Shown here: positions 7,970 to 28,389 of the stretch, piece after piece
Layout of the letters: each line of letters opens with the position of its first letter
Position numbering within the stretch: the stretch's first letter is position 1
Origin: a virus
Length of the DNA stretch: 64,000 nt
Reading direction: 5' to 3' (one strand)
IMG/VR virus record: IMGVR_UViG_3300046328_000321
Coordinates: 49,369 to 113,368 of that record
The notes under the pieces: generated by a model
The model's input: only the letters and a program-made list of their open reading frames with translations
Told to the model about the DNA's origin: nothing
Databases searched by the model: none
Made by a program: the position numbers and the translations under genes

Positions 7970-8361
7970 ATCAATTAAATTTATTTACCAAACAGACAGG
8001 TAAACCCAAAAACAATTTACTAAAACCAGTTCTATCTCCTTCTAATATTAAACCCACTGCTTCAGGTTTATTTTATACAAGTATTGATAAAACATATAGT
8101 TGGGCCAATCGAATAAGAACTAACTATTGTTTTACGATTAAGGATAAAATTTCATTTGGAAAAGTTAAAATAGTTGAGTTGATTTTAAACCAAGATATTT
8201 TATCTGCTGAAGAATATAGTAAGCTTTCTAAATGGGAAAAAAGAAATGTAGATCATTGGTTAAATGAAGATAAAACAAAAGCCATGATTAAAACACCTAT
8301 GACAGTCAGAGTTCTGACAGAAACAGAAGCTTGGTACTACTGGGTAACTAAAGATTTTTAA
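7966..8361 (+). CDS. Hypothetical protein
   Basis: ATGA-coupled to the upstream ORF; followed by a terminator hairpin. Confidence 0.6.
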   Translation: MNQLNLFTKQTGKPKNNLLKPVLSPSNIKPTASGLFYTSIDKTYSWANRIRTNYCFTIKDKISFGKVKIVELILNQDILSAEEYSKLSKWEKRNVDHWLNEDKTKAMIKTPMTVRVLTETEAWYYWVTKDF

Positions 8362-12719: not shown

Positions 12720-13547
12720 GTGTCAAATACTGACTTACTATCGTTACCACCTCATCGAGAAAAGCAAATCGTGAAAATTCAATTTGACAACGAACAAACC
12801 TCAGTACGCCCACCTATGGATATCGATCTGTATAACAGGTGTGTTGATAAAACAATGGAATTTCTGAACTTCAAAGAAGATCCTAAAGATAAACGCAAAC
12901 TCGACAGGTACATCAAAACCAAGTTACCTAATCTGATTAAACTTCTCACCTATCCTGAACCAGGTGCCTTTACAGCCGTCAAACTGACGATCTCAGACAT
13001 GATGCATCTTAATGACGCAGGTGTCTTGAAACATCTGACAGAAGGATCAGCTATCGATAAAGCCAAGACTTATGTGTCTGAGTTGAAAATTATCGGAGAA
13101 GAGACTCTTGCTACAGGTAAAGTTCTACCTGTTTACTGTTATCACCCTACAGTGGAACATATGGTGAATTATTTTACCCATTGTTTCAACAACCATAAAG
13201 GTGACTTGATGGCCAGAGACCTTTTGTTCTTTAGCCCCATGGGGTTGATTAACAAAGAAGGTAATGTGTTGTCTGAACTTGAAGTAGCAGATACTATGAT
13301 CTCAGGTACTTATAAACTTAACGGTAAGTGGAGAGAATTCTCATCATGGATGGTTGCTCATAATAAAACTGTTAATAATACATTCAGCAGGGTTAAATAT
13401 ATAAAATTGTTAAAAATGATGCTGGCCATGTTGACTATAAAGGTTATATGGGATACCAAACAAAATGATAAAATGACTGATATAAGTATTATGAACCATG
13501 TTGAGTTTATTTTATCAAGTGTAACTAAAGACTGGTTATATGCATAA
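12720..13547 (+). CDS. Hypothetical protein
   Basis: 275-aa ORF. Confidence 0.6.
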   Translation: MSNTDLLSLPPHREKQIVKIQFDNEQTSVRPPMDIDLYNRCVDKTMEFLNFKEDPKDKRKLDRYIKTKLPNLIKLLTYPEPGAFTAVKLTISDMMHLNDAGVLKHLTEGSAIDKAKTYVSELKIIGEETLATGKVLPVYCYHPTVEHMVNYFTHCFNNHKGDLMARDLLFFSPMGLINKEGNVLSELEVADTMISGTYKLNGKWREFSSWMVAHNKTVNNTFSRVKYIKLLKMMLAMLTIKVIWDTKQNDKMTDISIMNHVEFILSSVTKDWLYA

Positions 13548-13640
13548 CCCTTTCTAAAAAGACACAATCATATAAACTATAATTGGTAATCTATCTCGGA
13601 TAATTTTTATTCCGAGATATTATCTAATGAAGAACAGATT

Positions 13641-13667
13641 GGGCGGATGGCGAAATAGGTAGACGCA
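13641..13667 (+). pseudogene. 5' fragment of a Leu-type tRNA (acceptor strand and D arm)
   Basis: GGGCGGA TG GCG AAATAGGTAGA CGC A; complementary acceptor strand TCTGCCC-A-CCA at 14603-14613. Confidence 0.75.
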
Positions 13668-13670
13668 AAA

Positions 13671-14168
13671 ATGGATAAAGAAAAACTTCTTGGATTATAT
13701 CCAGGTTACACTTCTGTTTTGGGACCTTACACAAGGCCGGACGGTAGAAAACACGTTATACTTAATAATTCTAACGCTTCTAACGGAACTAAGGGTAAGA
13801 CTAAAACTATCTCTTACCCCAAAGCCTTAATGGAAGTTGAATTAAATAAGAAACTCAATCCAGATGAAACTGTCGATCACCATGACAGAGATTTCACTAA
13901 CGATAACAGTATTAATTTAAAAGTGAAGACGCGCTCTTTACACGCGTCTGAAGATGCTTTACGAATTAAGGTAGAAGATATTAGATGTCCACAATGTGGA
14001 AAATATTTTACACCTAGTGTAAGTCAAAGAAATAAAGTAAACAGTATAATTGCTGGTCCATTTTGTAGTAAACAGTGTTCCGGGTTATATGGAACAAATA
14101 TTCAAAAAGGTATGCAGCCTTTTAAGAGAACAGAAATTAGAAAATATTACTATCGTAAAGATAAATAA
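13671..14168 (+). CDS. HNH homing endonuclease with C-terminal zinc finger
   Basis: ETVDHHDRDFTND..NL HNH motif; CPQC...FCSKQC. Confidence 0.85.
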   Translation: MDKEKLLGLYPGYTSVLGPYTRPDGRKHVILNNSNASNGTKGKTKTISYPKALMEVELNKKLNPDETVDHHDRDFTNDNSINLKVKTRSLHASEDALRIKVEDIRCPQCGKYFTPSVSQRNKVNSIIAGPFCSKQCSGLYGTNIQKGMQPFKRTEIRKYYYRKDK

Positions 14169-14191
14169 ATATTTTATTAGAGAACATTGGT

Positions 14192-14521
14192 GGCCCGCTG
14201 ATGAAATTGGTAGACATAACGGAAAACCAGAAAGTTAGTCCGCCTTTACTAGTAATAGTAAAGTAAACTGTGGGTGAACTCAGGAGAATCTAAAGCGCAA
14301 GCCATGATAATCGTGAGCCAAGCTAGAAGTACACTTCTAGAAGGTGCAGAGACTACTGGAAAGGTAAAGTCCTTTTAATAACCAGCTAGAGCGCCCACTA
14401 CCGTAATAGAATTTCTATCGGTAAAGAGATAGTCCATGTCCATTGGAAACTTTGGAACACATGCTTAAAATCCGTCGCTTCCGAAAGGAGCATTCCGGTT
14501 CGATTCCGGAGCGGGCCACCA
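14192..14521 (+). tRNA. trnL: tRNA-Leu(UAA) interrupted by a group I intron
   Basis: Joining 14192-14223 to 14464-14521 gives a cloverleaf: acceptor GGCCCGC/GCGGGCC, anticodon arm ACGGA-CTTAAAA-TCCGT, long variable arm, TTCGATT loop, CCA. Confidence 0.88.
14224..14463 (+). ncRNA. ORF-less group I intron (IC3/trnL-like core), 240 nt
   Basis: P AACTCAGGAGAA, Q AATCGTGAGCC, R GTGCAGAGACT, S AAGAGATAGTCC; P3 GTGGGTG/CGCCCAC; terminal G at 14463. Confidence 0.85.
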
Positions 14522-14543
14522 ATGTTCTCTTCAATCTTTAATA

Positions 14544-14613
14544 CTGCTCGTAGTTAAATGGATATAAAGCTTCTAAGTTTTAGTTCCAAGTTCGATTCCC
14601 GTTCTGCCCACCA
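14544..14613 (+). pseudogene. Chimeric pseudo-tRNA: degenerate Arg(UCU) body fused at the T-loop to the 3' end of the Leu fragment
   Basis: GCTCGTAGTTAAATGGATATAA...CTTCTAA...CCAAG TTCGATT then CCCGT TCTGCCC ACCA; T-stem and acceptor strands do not pair with each other. Confidence 0.6.
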
Positions 14614-14639
14614 TGTATTATTGTTTATTAATACACGAT

Positions 14640-14716
14640 AGGTCTGTAACTCAATAGGATAGAGTAACTCCCTTCTAAGGAGTAAGTTGCTGGTTCGAAT
14701 CCAGTCAGACCTACCA
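14640..14716 (+). tRNA. trnR: tRNA-Arg(UCU)
   Basis: AGGTCTG/CAGACCT acceptor, ACTCC-CTTCTAA-GGAGT arm, TTCGAAT loop, CCA. Confidence 0.93.
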
Positions 14717-14732
14717 TTTATTAATAAATAAC

Positions 14733-15398
14733 GCCGGTTTAACTCAGTTGGTAGAGTAATCGCCTTAAAAAAAAAATAATGTTTAAAAGGATTGATTATG
14801 TATAAAAATCAAAAGAGAAGATTAGATACTAACGGTTATATAATAGTTCACTGTCCAGAACACCCAAAAGCAATGAAGAACGGGAGTTTTGAAGGATATG
14901 TTTACGAACATGTTTTGATGGCAGAAGAAATTTTGGATAGATCTGTTAAAGAAGGTGAAGTAGTTCACCATCTTGATGAAAATAAAAGTAATAATTCCCC
15001 TGATAATTTATTGATTTTATCAAACCCAATGCATGTTAAACTTCATGGTTGGTTAAACAAACATGAAATAAAACCTAAAGAAAAACAAGAAGAGCGAATC
15101 AGATTAGGTTGTATCAGATGTAAAACATGTGAAAAACCAATTTTACCTAATTTAATATACTGTTCTCCTCAGTGCACATTCTTTGATAAAAGAAAATATG
15201 ATCATCCGAATAAAGAAACTTTGACTCAAATGGTCTGGTCTGAACCTACTTCTAAAGTTGCTATGAAATTAGGTGTTTCAGACAAAGCCATAGAAAAACT
15301 TTGTAAGAAATTTGAAGTTGAAAAACCTCCCAGAGGTTATTGGATGAAAAATAAATCAAAAGTGTAAGTCGTCTGTTCGAGTCAGACAACCGGCACCA
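14733..15398 (+). pseudogene. tRNA-Thr(UGU) split at the anticodon loop by an HNH gene
   Basis: 5' half GCCGGTT...ATCGC-CTT (14733-14766); 3' half GTAA-GTC-GTCTG-TTCGAGT-CAGAC-AACCGGC-ACCA (15364-15398); 3' anticodon-stem strand missing. Confidence 0.8.
14798..15367 (+). CDS. HNH homing endonuclease with zinc finger and C-terminal HTH
   Basis: YVYEHVLMAE...VVHHLDENKSNN.PDNL; CKTC..YCSPQC; KVAMKLGVSDKAI..PPRGYW. Confidence 0.88.
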   Translation: MYKNQKRRLDTNGYIIVHCPEHPKAMKNGSFEGYVYEHVLMAEEILDRSVKEGEVVHHLDENKSNNSPDNLLILSNPMHVKLHGWLNKHEIKPKEKQEERIRLGCIRCKTCEKPILPNLIYCSPQCTFFDKRKYDHPNKETLTQMVWSEPTSKVAMKLGVSDKAIEKLCKKFEVEKPPRGYWMKNKSKV

Positions 15399-15416
15399 AC
15401 AAACAAAAAGATTAAA

Positions 15417-15493
15417 GGGTGTGAAGCTTAAGTGGTATAAGCATCGGTCTCATAAACCGGAGATAGTCGATTCGAGTTCGACGGCACCCACCA
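15417..15493 (+). tRNA. tRNA with CAU anticodon (Ile2 or Met)
   Basis: TCGGT-CTCATAA-ACCGG arm, GTCGA-TTCGAGT-TCGAC, CCA; G7-G66 mismatch and A8 are atypical. Confidence 0.8.
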
Positions 15494-15519
15494 TTTAAAT
15501 TTAATAGAAGTACTTAACT

Positions 15520-15554
15520 AAAGCCCTCCGCTATTACTGCGGAGGGCTTTTTTT
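15520..15554 (+). terminator. Intrinsic terminator of the tRNA cluster
   Basis: AAAGCCCTCCGC/GCGGAGGGCTTT hairpin plus T-run. Confidence 0.85.
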
Positions 15555-15560
15555 ATTTGC

Positions 15561-16354
15561 AATAGGACTTACACAGAAATTCGTCAGCATTCACCGTTGA
15601 TGACACGGGACGGTAAATGTGCCGTCTCCACATGGAGCAAAGAATGAAACTTTTTATTGAGGGTGACAAATTCAAGGCAATTTGCAGTCACTGTAAAGAT
15701 TGGGTTGACACGACCTTCAAATATCGGGATGTGTCGTTCAGCAACGGTTCCGGTGTGGTGAAAGACATCCTGGTTGCGGTGTGCGACAGCTGTGGTCAAG
15801 TGGTGGCCACCCCGCCCCAGTCCACTCCAAAAATAAAGAAATCGCGCGCCAAAGCGCTCAAGTCGGTGGAAGTCAGTGTCCCAGCCACTCTGGACGATGC
15901 GGTGAACGTAGCGATGCACGCTATTGATGTCGACTTCTCACAAGAATTCAAAAAGAAGGCCTTGTGGCTGTTTGTGCGAACCTACGCCAATGGTCCTAAA
16001 GACCCGATCGGGTTGAAGGCGGAATATGCAGCCAAGATTGGTGCTTTTGGGAAAGTCAAGTCTCGGTTTTCTTTCAAGGTTTCAGAGGCGATGCTGGTGG
16101 ATCTCAAAAAGGCTTCCGAAACCTTCGGTGAGAATCAAACAGAAACACTCAAGATTGCCGCCTTTGACCTTTACAACAAAGTCATTGAGCAGAAAGACAA
16201 GCGGCTGATTGCCAAGCTGCGGGACATCGCCTACATGGCGTGAGCTGGTGTCACCGAAGGTCCAACTCTTTAGCCTTTGTCCTTTCCCACTATCCCAACT
16301 GCTCCTGCAGCCATTCCCTAGTGCATAGCGTAGAAATTATGCGTAGGTCCTATT
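15561..16354. mobile_element. GC-richer island bounded by imperfect 15-bp inverted repeats
   Basis: AATAGGACTTACACA (15561-15575) versus reverse complement of TGCGTAGGTCCTATT (16340-16354), 13/15 match; abrupt GC rise inside. Confidence 0.65.
15644..16243 (+). CDS. MqsA/YgiT-type zinc-finger protein, probable orphan antitoxin
   Basis: CSHC...YRDV...VKDILVAVCDSCG; GGAG RBS; host-like codon usage. Confidence 0.65.
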   Translation: MKLFIEGDKFKAICSHCKDWVDTTFKYRDVSFSNGSGVVKDILVAVCDSCGQVVATPPQSTPKIKKSRAKALKSVEVSVPATLDDAVNVAMHAIDVDFSQEFKKKALWLFVRTYANGPKDPIGLKAEYAAKIGAFGKVKSRFSFKVSEAMLVDLKKASETFGENQTETLKIAAFDLYNKVIEQKDKRLIAKLRDIAYMA

Positions 16355-26553: not shown

Positions 26554-28389
26554 ATGGCTATCATTCACGACGACAAAATCACCACCTCTGCTCCTAAGGT
26601 ACAAGACCAGCATGTTAATACCAACACTGCTGCCGTACAGCGTAATAGCTGGAACTTTGGTTCCGGTGGTAATATTTTTGCGGCACCTATTGGTCGCAGT
26701 ATCGGTTCAGAAGTTTACAACGAGCTGAAAGGTTCGCTGATTGAGATTTATAAGAATGCTCAAAGTGATGCGTCTATCTCCATCTTGGACATGGATAATC
26801 AAAACGAAAGTGCTCTTGCATTTTCATGTCTGATTGTTGCCATGCGGTTGAAGAACGTCCCCAATAAGGTTGCATATCACATTCTGATGTTGGAAGCTAC
26901 CGGTGAACGTCCAAATCCAGTAATCCAATATAATGGATCTAAGCAGATTGAACTACATCGTACTGCCGGCGATGCGATCGATGATATCCTTATTGGTAAG
27001 GCAAAGAGTATTGTTCAACGTGCATTTCCTTCTCATGAAACCCATTATACCGACACCACTGTCGTACCAGCGGGTTTCAATATGAAGGACAAAGCGGCTG
27101 TATACAAGTTGGCGTTGAATGCTGGTCTAGCCAACGGTACCGAATTGGAAACTTCTTCCAACACGTTCCAGGATCTGAATGTGAGTCAGATTCCCCAAGG
27201 TCAGCAATTGGTAGTGAACATGACCTTCGGGTCCACACCCATCGCCGATGATGTCGGTAACCTGATGCGTTCTGACTTCCAATTGAGCTTTGCTGCACAA
27301 AACAGTAAAGCTCAAAACAATCAGTCGTTGAACAGTGGGGGTCGTGAGACTCGTATTGCTGACGTGGCTGGTTTTGTGGAAATGCTTTGGGCACCTGTGG
27401 AACCCATGGTCAATCCATACATGCCTGTGCAACAACGACAGACACAGAAATTTGCTGCTCGTTCTGTCATCACCAGCATGACTTCTACACACAGCTATAC
27501 TCCTGGATCTATGCTGTTGGCTGTGGCTATGTTGGACGCTTTGGCTCTCCATAATAACTATTACCAAGTCTTCCGTCCCTCTATGACGAAAGATCTGGAT
27601 ATTCGTGATGTGGGTGCCCTGAATATTGAAGGTAACTACGATAACAACCCAACCGGTGTGTCGTCTGTACTGGATACCAAGTCCTCCAGCTTCTCTCATG
27701 AGAACCTGGGTATGTTCTTGAATGCTTTAGTGCGTCCTGGTATGTTGGTGGCTATCGATTGTCCAGTCGGCGGTGCTCAATCTTGGTATACAGGTCTGTA
27801 CGATGCAGCTTCCACTCGTGGTGGTTCTGCCTATGACATCTTATACACAGCTGCGCAAGAACTGACGAATGGTAACTTTGCTCGTTTGTTCCCCAAGGGT
27901 GCACAGATGTTCTTGGATGCGGGTAATCGTATTCATACGGGTATCTATACTGATCGCCAAGGTGCTCAGCGTGATATTCGAGATATCGACTATCTTGCAG
28001 CAGCAAACATTCTGGGTGCTAATAACGTGCAAGCGTTGCGTCAGTACACTGAAACATTCTGGAATCAGAACATCAGCTTGGCTGAGCGTTTGTCGGATCG
28101 TAAGCGTATGATTTCCAGCATGACCAACGAGACTGCTACTTTTACCGGGTATGCAAATCGAGTTACTTTTTCTGGTACTTTCATCGAAGCACTACGTAAA
28201 GGTATCCAGGCATGTAACATGAATGTACGGATCAACAGTCCGATGAGCGGTGCAGATTTCAACGCTCAACGCGGCGTTGCAACATTTGCTAACGCAGGTC
28301 TGATTGTACCTACCGGTTCGTTCATGGGTTTTGGCATTGCTCCTCAACACATGCAAAACATGATGCACATGGGTGGTTACCGCTATTAA
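26554..28389 (+). CDS. chmA: Chimallin, phage nuclear shell protein
   Basis: 611 aa immediately upstream of nvRNAP beta'; RI..G.Y.D..G..RDIRDIDYLA motif; highly expressed codon style; strong terminator. Confidence 0.88.
   Translation: MAIIHDDKITTSAPKVQDQHVNTNTAAVQRNSWNFGSGGNIFAAPIGRSIGSEVYNELKGSLIEIYKNAQSDASISILDMDNQNESALAFSCLIVAMRLKNVPNKVAYHILMLEATGERPNPVIQYNGSKQIELHRTAGDAIDDILIGKAKSIVQRAFPSHETHYTDTTVVPAGFNMKDKAAVYKLALNAGLANGTELETSSNTFQDLNVSQIPQGQQLVVNMTFGSTPIADDVGNLMRSDFQLSFAAQNSKAQNNQSLNSGGRETRIADVAGFVEMLWAPVEPMVNPYMPVQQRQTQKFAARSVITSMTSTHSYTPGSMLLAVAMLDALALHNNYYQVFRPSMTKDLDIRDVGALNIEGNYDNNPTGVSSVLDTKSSSFSHENLGMFLNALVRPGMLVAIDCPVGGAQSWYTGLYDAASTRGGSAYDILYTAAQELTNGNFARLFPKGAQMFLDAGNRIHTGIYTDRQGAQRDIRDIDYLAAANILGANNVQALRQYTETFWNQNISLAERLSDRKRMISSMTNETATFTGYANRVTFSGTFIEALRKGIQACNMNVRINSPMSGADFNAQRGVATFANAGLIVPTGSFMGFGIAPQHMQNMMHMGGYRY

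Follow-up and report, generated by a model that had tools for sequence, protein, structure and literature searches.

The window analyzed here is a stretch of 64,000 nucleotides (GC content, 37%) from a viral record of 113 kb that is estimated to be 43% complete. Because it encodes both a chimallin-type nuclear shell protein (positions 26554 to 28389; phrog_4795, 2.4e-69) and the beta subunit of a multisubunit RNA polymerase, the source is a phiKZ-type jumbo phage that forms a nucleus, and a crAss-like identity is rejected. A tRNA cluster on the plus strand (13641 to 15493) contains, in order, a class II tRNA 5′ fragment, a first HNH gene (HNH#1), a tRNA-Leu with a group I intron, a chimeric pseudo-tRNA, a tRNA-Arg(UCU), a tRNA-Thr split by a second HNH gene (HNH#2), a tRNA(CAU), and a terminator hairpin, which likely marks the end of the tRNA/HNH transcription unit. 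Searches with positions 13500 to 15600 against GenBank phages gave no match by megablast and only tRNA and intron-core pieces in the distant mode. The features at and around the split gene are the following.

14640 to 14716, plus strand: intact tRNA-Arg(UCU), the upstream neighbor (ARAGORN; Rfam tRNA, 69.3 bits)
14733 to 14766, plus strand: 5′ half of tRNA-Thr(UGU), positions 1 to 34, with the acceptor 5′ strand, D arm, anticodon-stem 5′ strand, and C32, U33, and U34 (34/34 against L004 8085 to 8118)
14767 to 14797, plus strand: leader of the cassette, with an A10 run (14767 to 14776) and the SD sequence AAAGGA (14786 to 14791), read from the sequence
14798 to 15367, plus strand: putative HNH homing-endonuclease gene of 189 aa, from ATG (14798) to TAA (15367) (Pfam HNH_3, PHROG 15471, and homologs)
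15365 to 15398, plus strand: 3′ remnant of tRNA-Thr, probably T43, the variable loop AAGTC, T arm, acceptor 3′ strand, discriminator A, and encoded CCA (by comparison with L004 and L009)
15417 to 15493, plus strand: tRNA(CAU), the downstream neighbor (Rfam tRNA, 47.5 bits)
about 15522 to 15556: hairpin and T-run terminator, read from the sequence

The first-pass annotation had described an HNH gene lodged in a tRNA-Thr(UGU), and the boundaries it gave, 14733 and 15398, proved exact. The 5′ half begins after a gap of 16 nt from tRNA-Arg(UCU) and reads GCCGGTT TA ACTC AGTTGGTA GAGT A ATCGC CTT, which places the 5′ junction within the anticodon loop, after C32-U33-U34. As annotated, this CTT is followed by the A-run and the HNH open reading frame (ORF), whose ATG stands 6 nt from the SD sequence. 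The letters from 15368 to 15398 are GTC + GTCTG/TTCGAGT/CAGAC + AACCGGC + A + CCA. The two halves have acceptor strands that form 7 bp with each other (GCCGGTT/AACCGGC), their D and T arms are free of decay, and ARAGORN leaves the split gene uncalled. Just 31 nt of the 601-nt insert are noncoding, and the region from 14733 to 15398 has no match to Intron_gpI or any other Rfam family even at an E value of ≤10, in the same runs that detected the adjacent tRNA-Leu intron as Intron_gpI at 62.4 bits; the earlier remark that no intron core is present therefore stands.

An exact-pattern scan of viral contigs located an intact tRNA-Thr(UGU), called tRNA-Thr(TGT) by ARAGORN, at positions 8085 to 8160 of L004, a viral contig of 52% GC that is unrelated to the window. 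The halves in the window are identical to it at every comparable base (34/34 and 31/31, or 65/65), and the locus is therefore a genuine tRNA gene in two parts and no accidental likeness, with acceptor, D, and T arms as intact as the first reading had them. Between the two pieces, the L004 gene has GTAAGCGATAA and the window has the 601-nt insert. According to this alignment, 8 nt are deleted in the window, namely, tRNA positions 35 to 42 (GTAAGCGA), and these include the 3′ anticodon-stem strand that had been noted as absent. The core of the intact tRNA-Thr had no exact match in 185,579 bacterial and archaeal genomes, and no relatives came up through the upstream 275-aa gene, the intact allele being found only in the unrelated phage contig L004. 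Judging from these occurrences, the L004-type tRNA-Thr allele seems to travel among phages.

The stop codon of the HNH gene allows two alignments. The first-pass annotation had placed it in the anticodon loop (CTT + GTAA), but the window sequence TAAGTC also aligns with GCGA-TAAGTC of L004, which would make TAA and the following GTC equivalent to T43 and the variable loop AAGTC. A related contig, L009, has the same junction, with TAG directly followed by GTC, a T arm, and AACCGGCACCA; because AGGTC would make a fitting variable loop here, T43+A44+A/G45 is the better reading of the stop codon. It is thus probably T43-A44-A45 of the tRNA remnant in the window, with a 3′ junction at 42/43 in common with L009, and the earlier placement is the less likely one even though the two alignments are not fully separable. 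The HNH proteins of the window and L009 both end exactly 7 residues past a conserved RGYW motif. Another relative, L038 (HNH, 49% identity), has a similar 5′ half that is also broken after CTT, without a spare tRNA. The window keeps both junctions and shares the 3′ one with L009 and the 5′ one with L038, which are different diverged relatives.

The product of HNH#2 matches Pfam HNH_3 (6.8e-8; 32.5 bits against a cutoff of 24.8) and phrog_15471 (8.7e-33). It combines an HNH_3 nuclease core with a Cys4 zinc ribbon and a C-terminal region for which DNA binding is predicted, and the nuclease is probably active, since all 26 invariant columns in an alignment of 44 homologs are kept. The A1 profile found no match among PDB sequences at an E value of ≤0.01. 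An identical HNH protein is present on three other contigs, and 161 homologs were found at an E value of ≤1e-10; tblastn identified phiKZ gp296 as a homolog, with 40% identity over 89% of the length.

Flanking sequences were obtained for 35 full-length members of the family, including the window, from GenBank phages, IMG/VR, and metagenomes. Among them, ARAGORN called a tRNA ≤130 nt upstream of the gene in 16 homologs (17 loci with the window), and an orphan T arm lies ≤80 nt past the stop codon at 8 of the 35 loci, where about 0.65 would be expected from a background of 0.019 per 80 nt. Within the sequences compared, the family, phiKZ gp296 included, is almost confined to phage tRNA clusters. 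Both 5′ and 3′ pieces with pairing acceptor strands occur at five loci (the window, L009, L041, L042, and phiKZ).

The members take three forms. In the intron-borne form (L046, L047, L050, L051, and L057), the gene lies inside a group I intron, confirmed by Rfam, in the anticodon loop of a tRNA(CAU) after CTCAT; L044 and L052 have the same build as judged by eye. In the second form, a cassette with a spare tRNA is nested in a broken older tRNA (Thr in L009, Asn in phiKZ and Psa21, Arg in L039, and likewise L041 and L042). The naked form is found in the window, L034, and L038. A maximum-likelihood tree places the window in an 11-row clade (support, 90/88) made up of free-standing members only, with all 7 intron-borne rows in the other half of the tree and the second and third contexts interleaved.

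Some loci show arrangements of their own. L060 (1874 to 2540) has a tRNA(CAU) 5′ half cut after CTCAT, the HNH gene, and a complete tRNA-Met that overlaps the end of the ORF, with no intron core; its HNH protein is sister (100/100) to that of the intron-borne L057, and the locus looks as if it had recently given up its intron and become free-standing. In L041 (1614 to 2560), the 5′ half of an old tRNA breaks off at CTT, and behind it come a group I-like core (…gaaggtgtagagactagacgg…atagtcc…), a tRNA-Met as the spare, the HNH gene, and the 3′ remnant of the old tRNA, an order that appears to record a nested history, with the intron first and the nuclease cassette later. Phage-encoded tmRNA genes were found in L048 (1959 to 2852; Rfam, 122 bits) and L047 (1353 to 1697; 86 bits). 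The HNH stop codon of L048 abuts the first base of its tmRNA gene, and the family therefore also adjoins tRNA-like genes. Directly upstream of the HNH gene in L008 lies an 85-nt tRNA(CAU) with a long variable arm (2408 to 2492), an atypical tRNA of the spare type, and a further tRNA-like element with the acceptor TTCCAGTG/CACTGGAA occupies about 2266 to 2375. L038 carries, after its HNH gene, a tRNA-like Arg(UCU) element (2606 to 2690) whose D arm is reduced and whose variable region is very long; ARAGORN does not call it, and it sits where relatives carry a 3′ remnant.

The tRNA cluster of the window holds a further case of an HNH gene right behind a tRNA 5′ piece, as had been noticed from the sequence alone: the ORF of HNH#1 (13671 to 14168) directly follows the class II tRNA 5′ fragment (13641 to 13667). 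Further downstream, 14546 to 14613 is a chimeric pseudo-tRNA with an Arg-like CTTCTAA loop, AT-rich broken stems, and the 3′ end TTCGATTCCCGTTCTGCCCACCA. The GGGCGGA of the fragment at 13641 pairs with the acceptor 3′ strand of this pseudo-tRNA, and the block from 13641 to 14613 is therefore read as a second nested HNH insertion.

A comparison with and without the insertion is available for the phiKZ homolog. Between gp297 and gp295.1, phiKZ has a tRNA-Asn 5′ half (TCCGTGA...AATGA CTGTTA), a spare tRNA-Asn(GUU) of 87 nt with a long variable arm, the HNH gene gp296, and a tRNA-Asn 3′ part (A TCACT GGGTC CCTGG TTCTAAC CCAGG TCACGGA G CCA). At the same spot and between identical flanks, Phikzvirus KEN49 has a single intact 76-nt tRNA-Asn. 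The alignment of this pair shows the classical signature of homing-endonuclease insertion and indicates that the anticodon loop is where the family cassette inserts. Set against the KEN49 gene, the phiKZ halves have 4 substitutions, 3 in the T loop and 1 that breaks an anticodon-stem pair; by position, this is decay at functionally critical sites. Presence and absence at one site are thus seen for the homolog (phiKZ versus KEN49), and the intact allele for the window comes from the unrelated L004 only.

A conserved tRNA-Asn(GUU) of 82 to 90 nt with a class II-like long variable arm is found in jumbo phages, here in phiKZ (L005, 1312 to 1398), Psa21 (L007, 1321 to 1408), L011 (2351 to 2436), L008 (3096 to 3177), and L010 (3022 to 3108). 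Its T stem shows compensatory changes between phiKZ (GTAGG/CCTAC) and Psa21 (GCTGG/CCAGC). In both of these phages, the long-arm tRNA-Asn lies upstream of the HNH gene and just downstream of a truncated tRNA 5′ piece, which is the tRNA-Asn half in phiKZ and a fragment with a GAT anticodon in Psa21.

The closest comparison for the tRNA halves of the window is with L009, a 180-kb jumbo-phage contig whose HNH protein has 58% amino acid identity to that of the window. L009 retains only positions 1 to 25 of the 5′ fragment of the orthologous tRNA-Thr and has a spare tRNA-Thr between this fragment and the HNH gene. The HNH genes are 64% identical in DNA sequence (49% at third codon positions), and the tRNA remnants are identical at 24/25 and 28/34 positions (52/59 overall). 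The differences in the T stem are two double changes that preserve pairing (50-64, T-A to G-T; 52-62, T-A to A-T), the pattern expected if the flanks stem from different functional tRNA-Thr alleles. By this measure, the tRNA remnants have not drifted in step with the nuclease gene. Elsewhere in the family, only a 5′ piece is left in Psa21, L034, and L038, and only a 3′ piece is left in L001, L036, L037, L039, L043, and L049, where its length varies between a full T arm and about 10 nt.

Taken together, we consider it probable that the locus is an intron-less, free-standing HNH homing-endonuclease gene seated in the anticodon-loop region of a killed tRNA-Thr(UGU), with flanks that have been renewed by repeated homing. 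The split tRNA-Thr gene is most likely dead, as the cassette of leader and ORF (about 600 bp) replaces positions 35 to 42 and no mature tRNA-Thr could therefore result. Of the two fates that the first-pass annotation had offered for the gene, a tRNA-like shell around the HNH mRNA or a simple dead tRNA, the comparison thus favors the second. The HNH enzyme would recognize and cut intact tRNA-Thr genes of coinfecting relatives near the anticodon loop, and repair from the HNH-bearing allele would copy in the cassette with both junctions. Every new invasion would supply fresh, functional-looking tRNA flanks, which would explain pristine halves beside an old nuclease lineage; repeated homing into intact tRNA-Thr genes, with flanks from recently functional alleles, is the simplest account of their condition. 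The ORF would be expressed off the tRNA-cluster transcript through its own SD sequence and ATG and would terminate at T43-A44-A45 of the remnant. What the sequences show is how the locus is built, that the nuclease is intact and a ribozyme missing, that the whole family is associated with tRNA genes, and that the phiKZ homolog has an insertion/no-insertion pair; cleavage specificity and homing are our proposal. A point against the proposal is that the 7-bp acceptor pairing is kept and is present in the predicted fold of the 666-nt RNA. As HNH#2 comes without a spare tRNA, the phage would lose its tRNA-Thr outright, unless a copy lies in the unsequenced 57% of the genome. For a homing endonuclease, there is nothing unusual in such a mechanism, save for the direct, intron-less occupation of a tRNA gene.

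The origin could also be sought in a decayed mobile intron, in which the HNH gene once belonged to a group I intron of the tRNA-Thr anticodon loop until a later deletion took away the core and, with it, 8 nt at the start of the 3′ exon. Distant members of the family are indeed borne by introns at nearly the same loop site, immediately after CTCAT in tRNA(CAU) genes, and the order within them is ORF first and core second, so that a single 3′ deletion would suffice. The coreless 5′ half and HNH gene of L060, sister (100/100) to the intron-borne L057, and the group I-like core that L041 retains between its old 5′ half and the spare tRNA and HNH gene are likewise consistent with such a loss. However, the clade of the window (11 rows, 90/88) is free-standing throughout while the 7 intron-borne rows lie in the other half of the tree, the coreless 3′ junction is common with L009 such that the loss of the core would predate a split at 58% identity, and no trace of core sequence is left. 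We therefore regard an intron origin of this particular insertion as unlikely. In its present state, the locus has neither a catalytic core (P3-P9) between the exons nor complete exons that could be joined, and splicing would be unable to restore the tRNA-Thr because exon bases are missing.

The tRNA-like shell supposes that the ends of the split gene pair as a tmRNA-type acceptor/T-arm module, that RNase P and 3′ processing excise and stabilize the HNH mRNA, and that the module might, in a phage that forms a nucleus, also mark it for export. In its favor, the minimum-free-energy fold of the 666-nt RNA (z = −2.3) still contains the 7-bp acceptor pairing, the D and T arms show no decay, many homologs have a tRNA remnant immediately at the stop codon, and the remnants are far better conserved than the adjoining coding DNA. 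The pairing is no proof of function, because it is expected for any two tRNA halves by descent. Against a shell, L009 and phiKZ have a whole spare tRNA separating the 5′ piece from the ORF, where ordinary tRNA processing would detach the 5′ piece, and many homologs have one piece only, with 3′ pieces as short as about 10 nt. Relative to the intact KEN49 allele, the phiKZ remnants have substitutions in the T loop and in a stem, the stop codon stands 3 nt before the T stem, which a terminating ribosome would be expected to unwind, and there is no tmRNA or other Rfam signal. Across the homologs, L009, Psa21, and others keep their pieces unequally and those of phiKZ have mutated, which is the decay of the halves that the first-pass annotation itself had set against a shell. 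We consider this reading very improbable, and the claim of a tmRNA-like mRNA capsule is not supported.

The undecayed arms leave room for a related thought. Zero decay over 65 nt beside a long-diverged nuclease could reflect selection on the halves instead of renewal by homing, with the arms kept to serve the nuclease gene, either as a module that recruits RNase P, 3′-end enzymes, or an export route for the HNH mRNA or as homology arms. If true, a tRNA gene would have been reused as the expression or mobility chassis of a homing endonuclease. We give selection on the arms, whether for an RNA role or as homology arms, a low rating, and the specific service to the nuclease gene equally little credence as the shell, because relatives keep the pieces so unequally and a spare tRNA separates the 5′ piece from the ORF in L009 and phiKZ. 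To our knowledge, bacteria and phages have no splicing system of the bulge-helix-bulge type, which, together with the absence of the 3′ anticodon-stem strand and four loop bases (two of them anticodon bases) from both insert and flanks and the restoration of function in relatives by a complete spare tRNA, makes it scarcely conceivable that the halves are joined in cis or trans into a working tRNA-Thr by an unknown nonribozyme route, a reading that has the perfect preservation of both halves as its only point in favor; in contrast to a split tRNA of the Nanoarchaeota type, 8 internal positions are in neither piece.

T4 SegB is, by analogy, the closest characterized system to the free-standing homing endonuclease that we propose. 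It is a homing endonuclease in a tRNA cluster that recognizes the T-psi-C stem-loop sequence of tRNA genes (PMC2330249); it is a free-standing GIY-YIG enzyme and drives the inheritance of itself and neighboring tRNA genes in mixed infections (PMC2330249; also PMC13096335). Both are selfish nuclease genes embedded in a phage tRNA cluster, but SegB is a GIY-YIG enzyme encoded between tRNA genes, whereas the enzyme of the window is of the HNH_3 type and sits inside a tRNA gene that it has destroyed, with homing as our proposal. Cyanobacteria are known to have intron-encoded endonucleases with specificity for tRNA anticodon regions, according to a citation in PMC3984707. The window resembles group I introns of tRNA anticodon loops in its insertion in the loop and in the endonuclease ORF between the halves and differs from them in having no ribozyme core and missing 8 nt of exon. 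The cassettes of phiKZ gp296, L009, L039, L041, and L042 belong to the same HNH family, likewise occupy the anticodon-loop region of a tRNA, and are bracketed by the halves of a broken old tRNA; these cassettes and that of HNH#1 (13641 to 14613) carry a replacement tRNA with the same anticodon, whereas HNH#2 has none.

Insertion of homing endonucleases in protein genes has produced fractured genes with split inteins (PMC2677866). There, too, an intron-less endonuclease gene divides a conserved host gene into adjacent pieces, although the fractured split-intein genes (PMC2677866) still give a working product, while the tRNA-Thr of the window has an essential internal segment deleted. The feature shares with tmRNA its topology, an internal ORF enclosed by an acceptor/T-arm module that the 5′ and 3′ ends can form by pairing. 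Unlike tmRNA, the 3:70 pair is C:G (no G3:U70), there are no pseudoknots and no resume-codon tag ORF, and the internal ORF is an SD/ATG-initiated gene for a conserved enzyme of 189 aa; neither ARAGORN nor Rfam made a tmRNA call in the feature. Our literature search, incomplete in its coverage, found no paper on an intron-less HNH gene inside a tRNA gene or on the split tRNA-Asn of phiKZ, and novelty is accordingly unproven.

The tidy tRNA halves are most likely the footprint of a nuclease family specialized on phage tRNA genes and no new RNA device, and the interest of the finding lies mainly in the family-level picture. The general view is that a homing endonuclease has to sit in an intron, an intein, or an intergenic position, where the target gene is spared. 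Here, one HNH family appears to use all options on phage tRNA genes, either riding in a group I intron, bringing a spare tRNA, or, as in the window, destroying a dispensable tRNA, and it offers a natural series for the study of lifestyle switching in homing elements. The family also accounts for tRNA halves that have gone unannotated in phiKZ-like phages and for their oddly long "tRNA-Asn" genes. For annotation, it is a warning that tRNA finders miss split genes, such that the tRNA repertoires of phages may be over- or undercounted. The enzymes of this family may be nucleases with specificity for tRNA genes.
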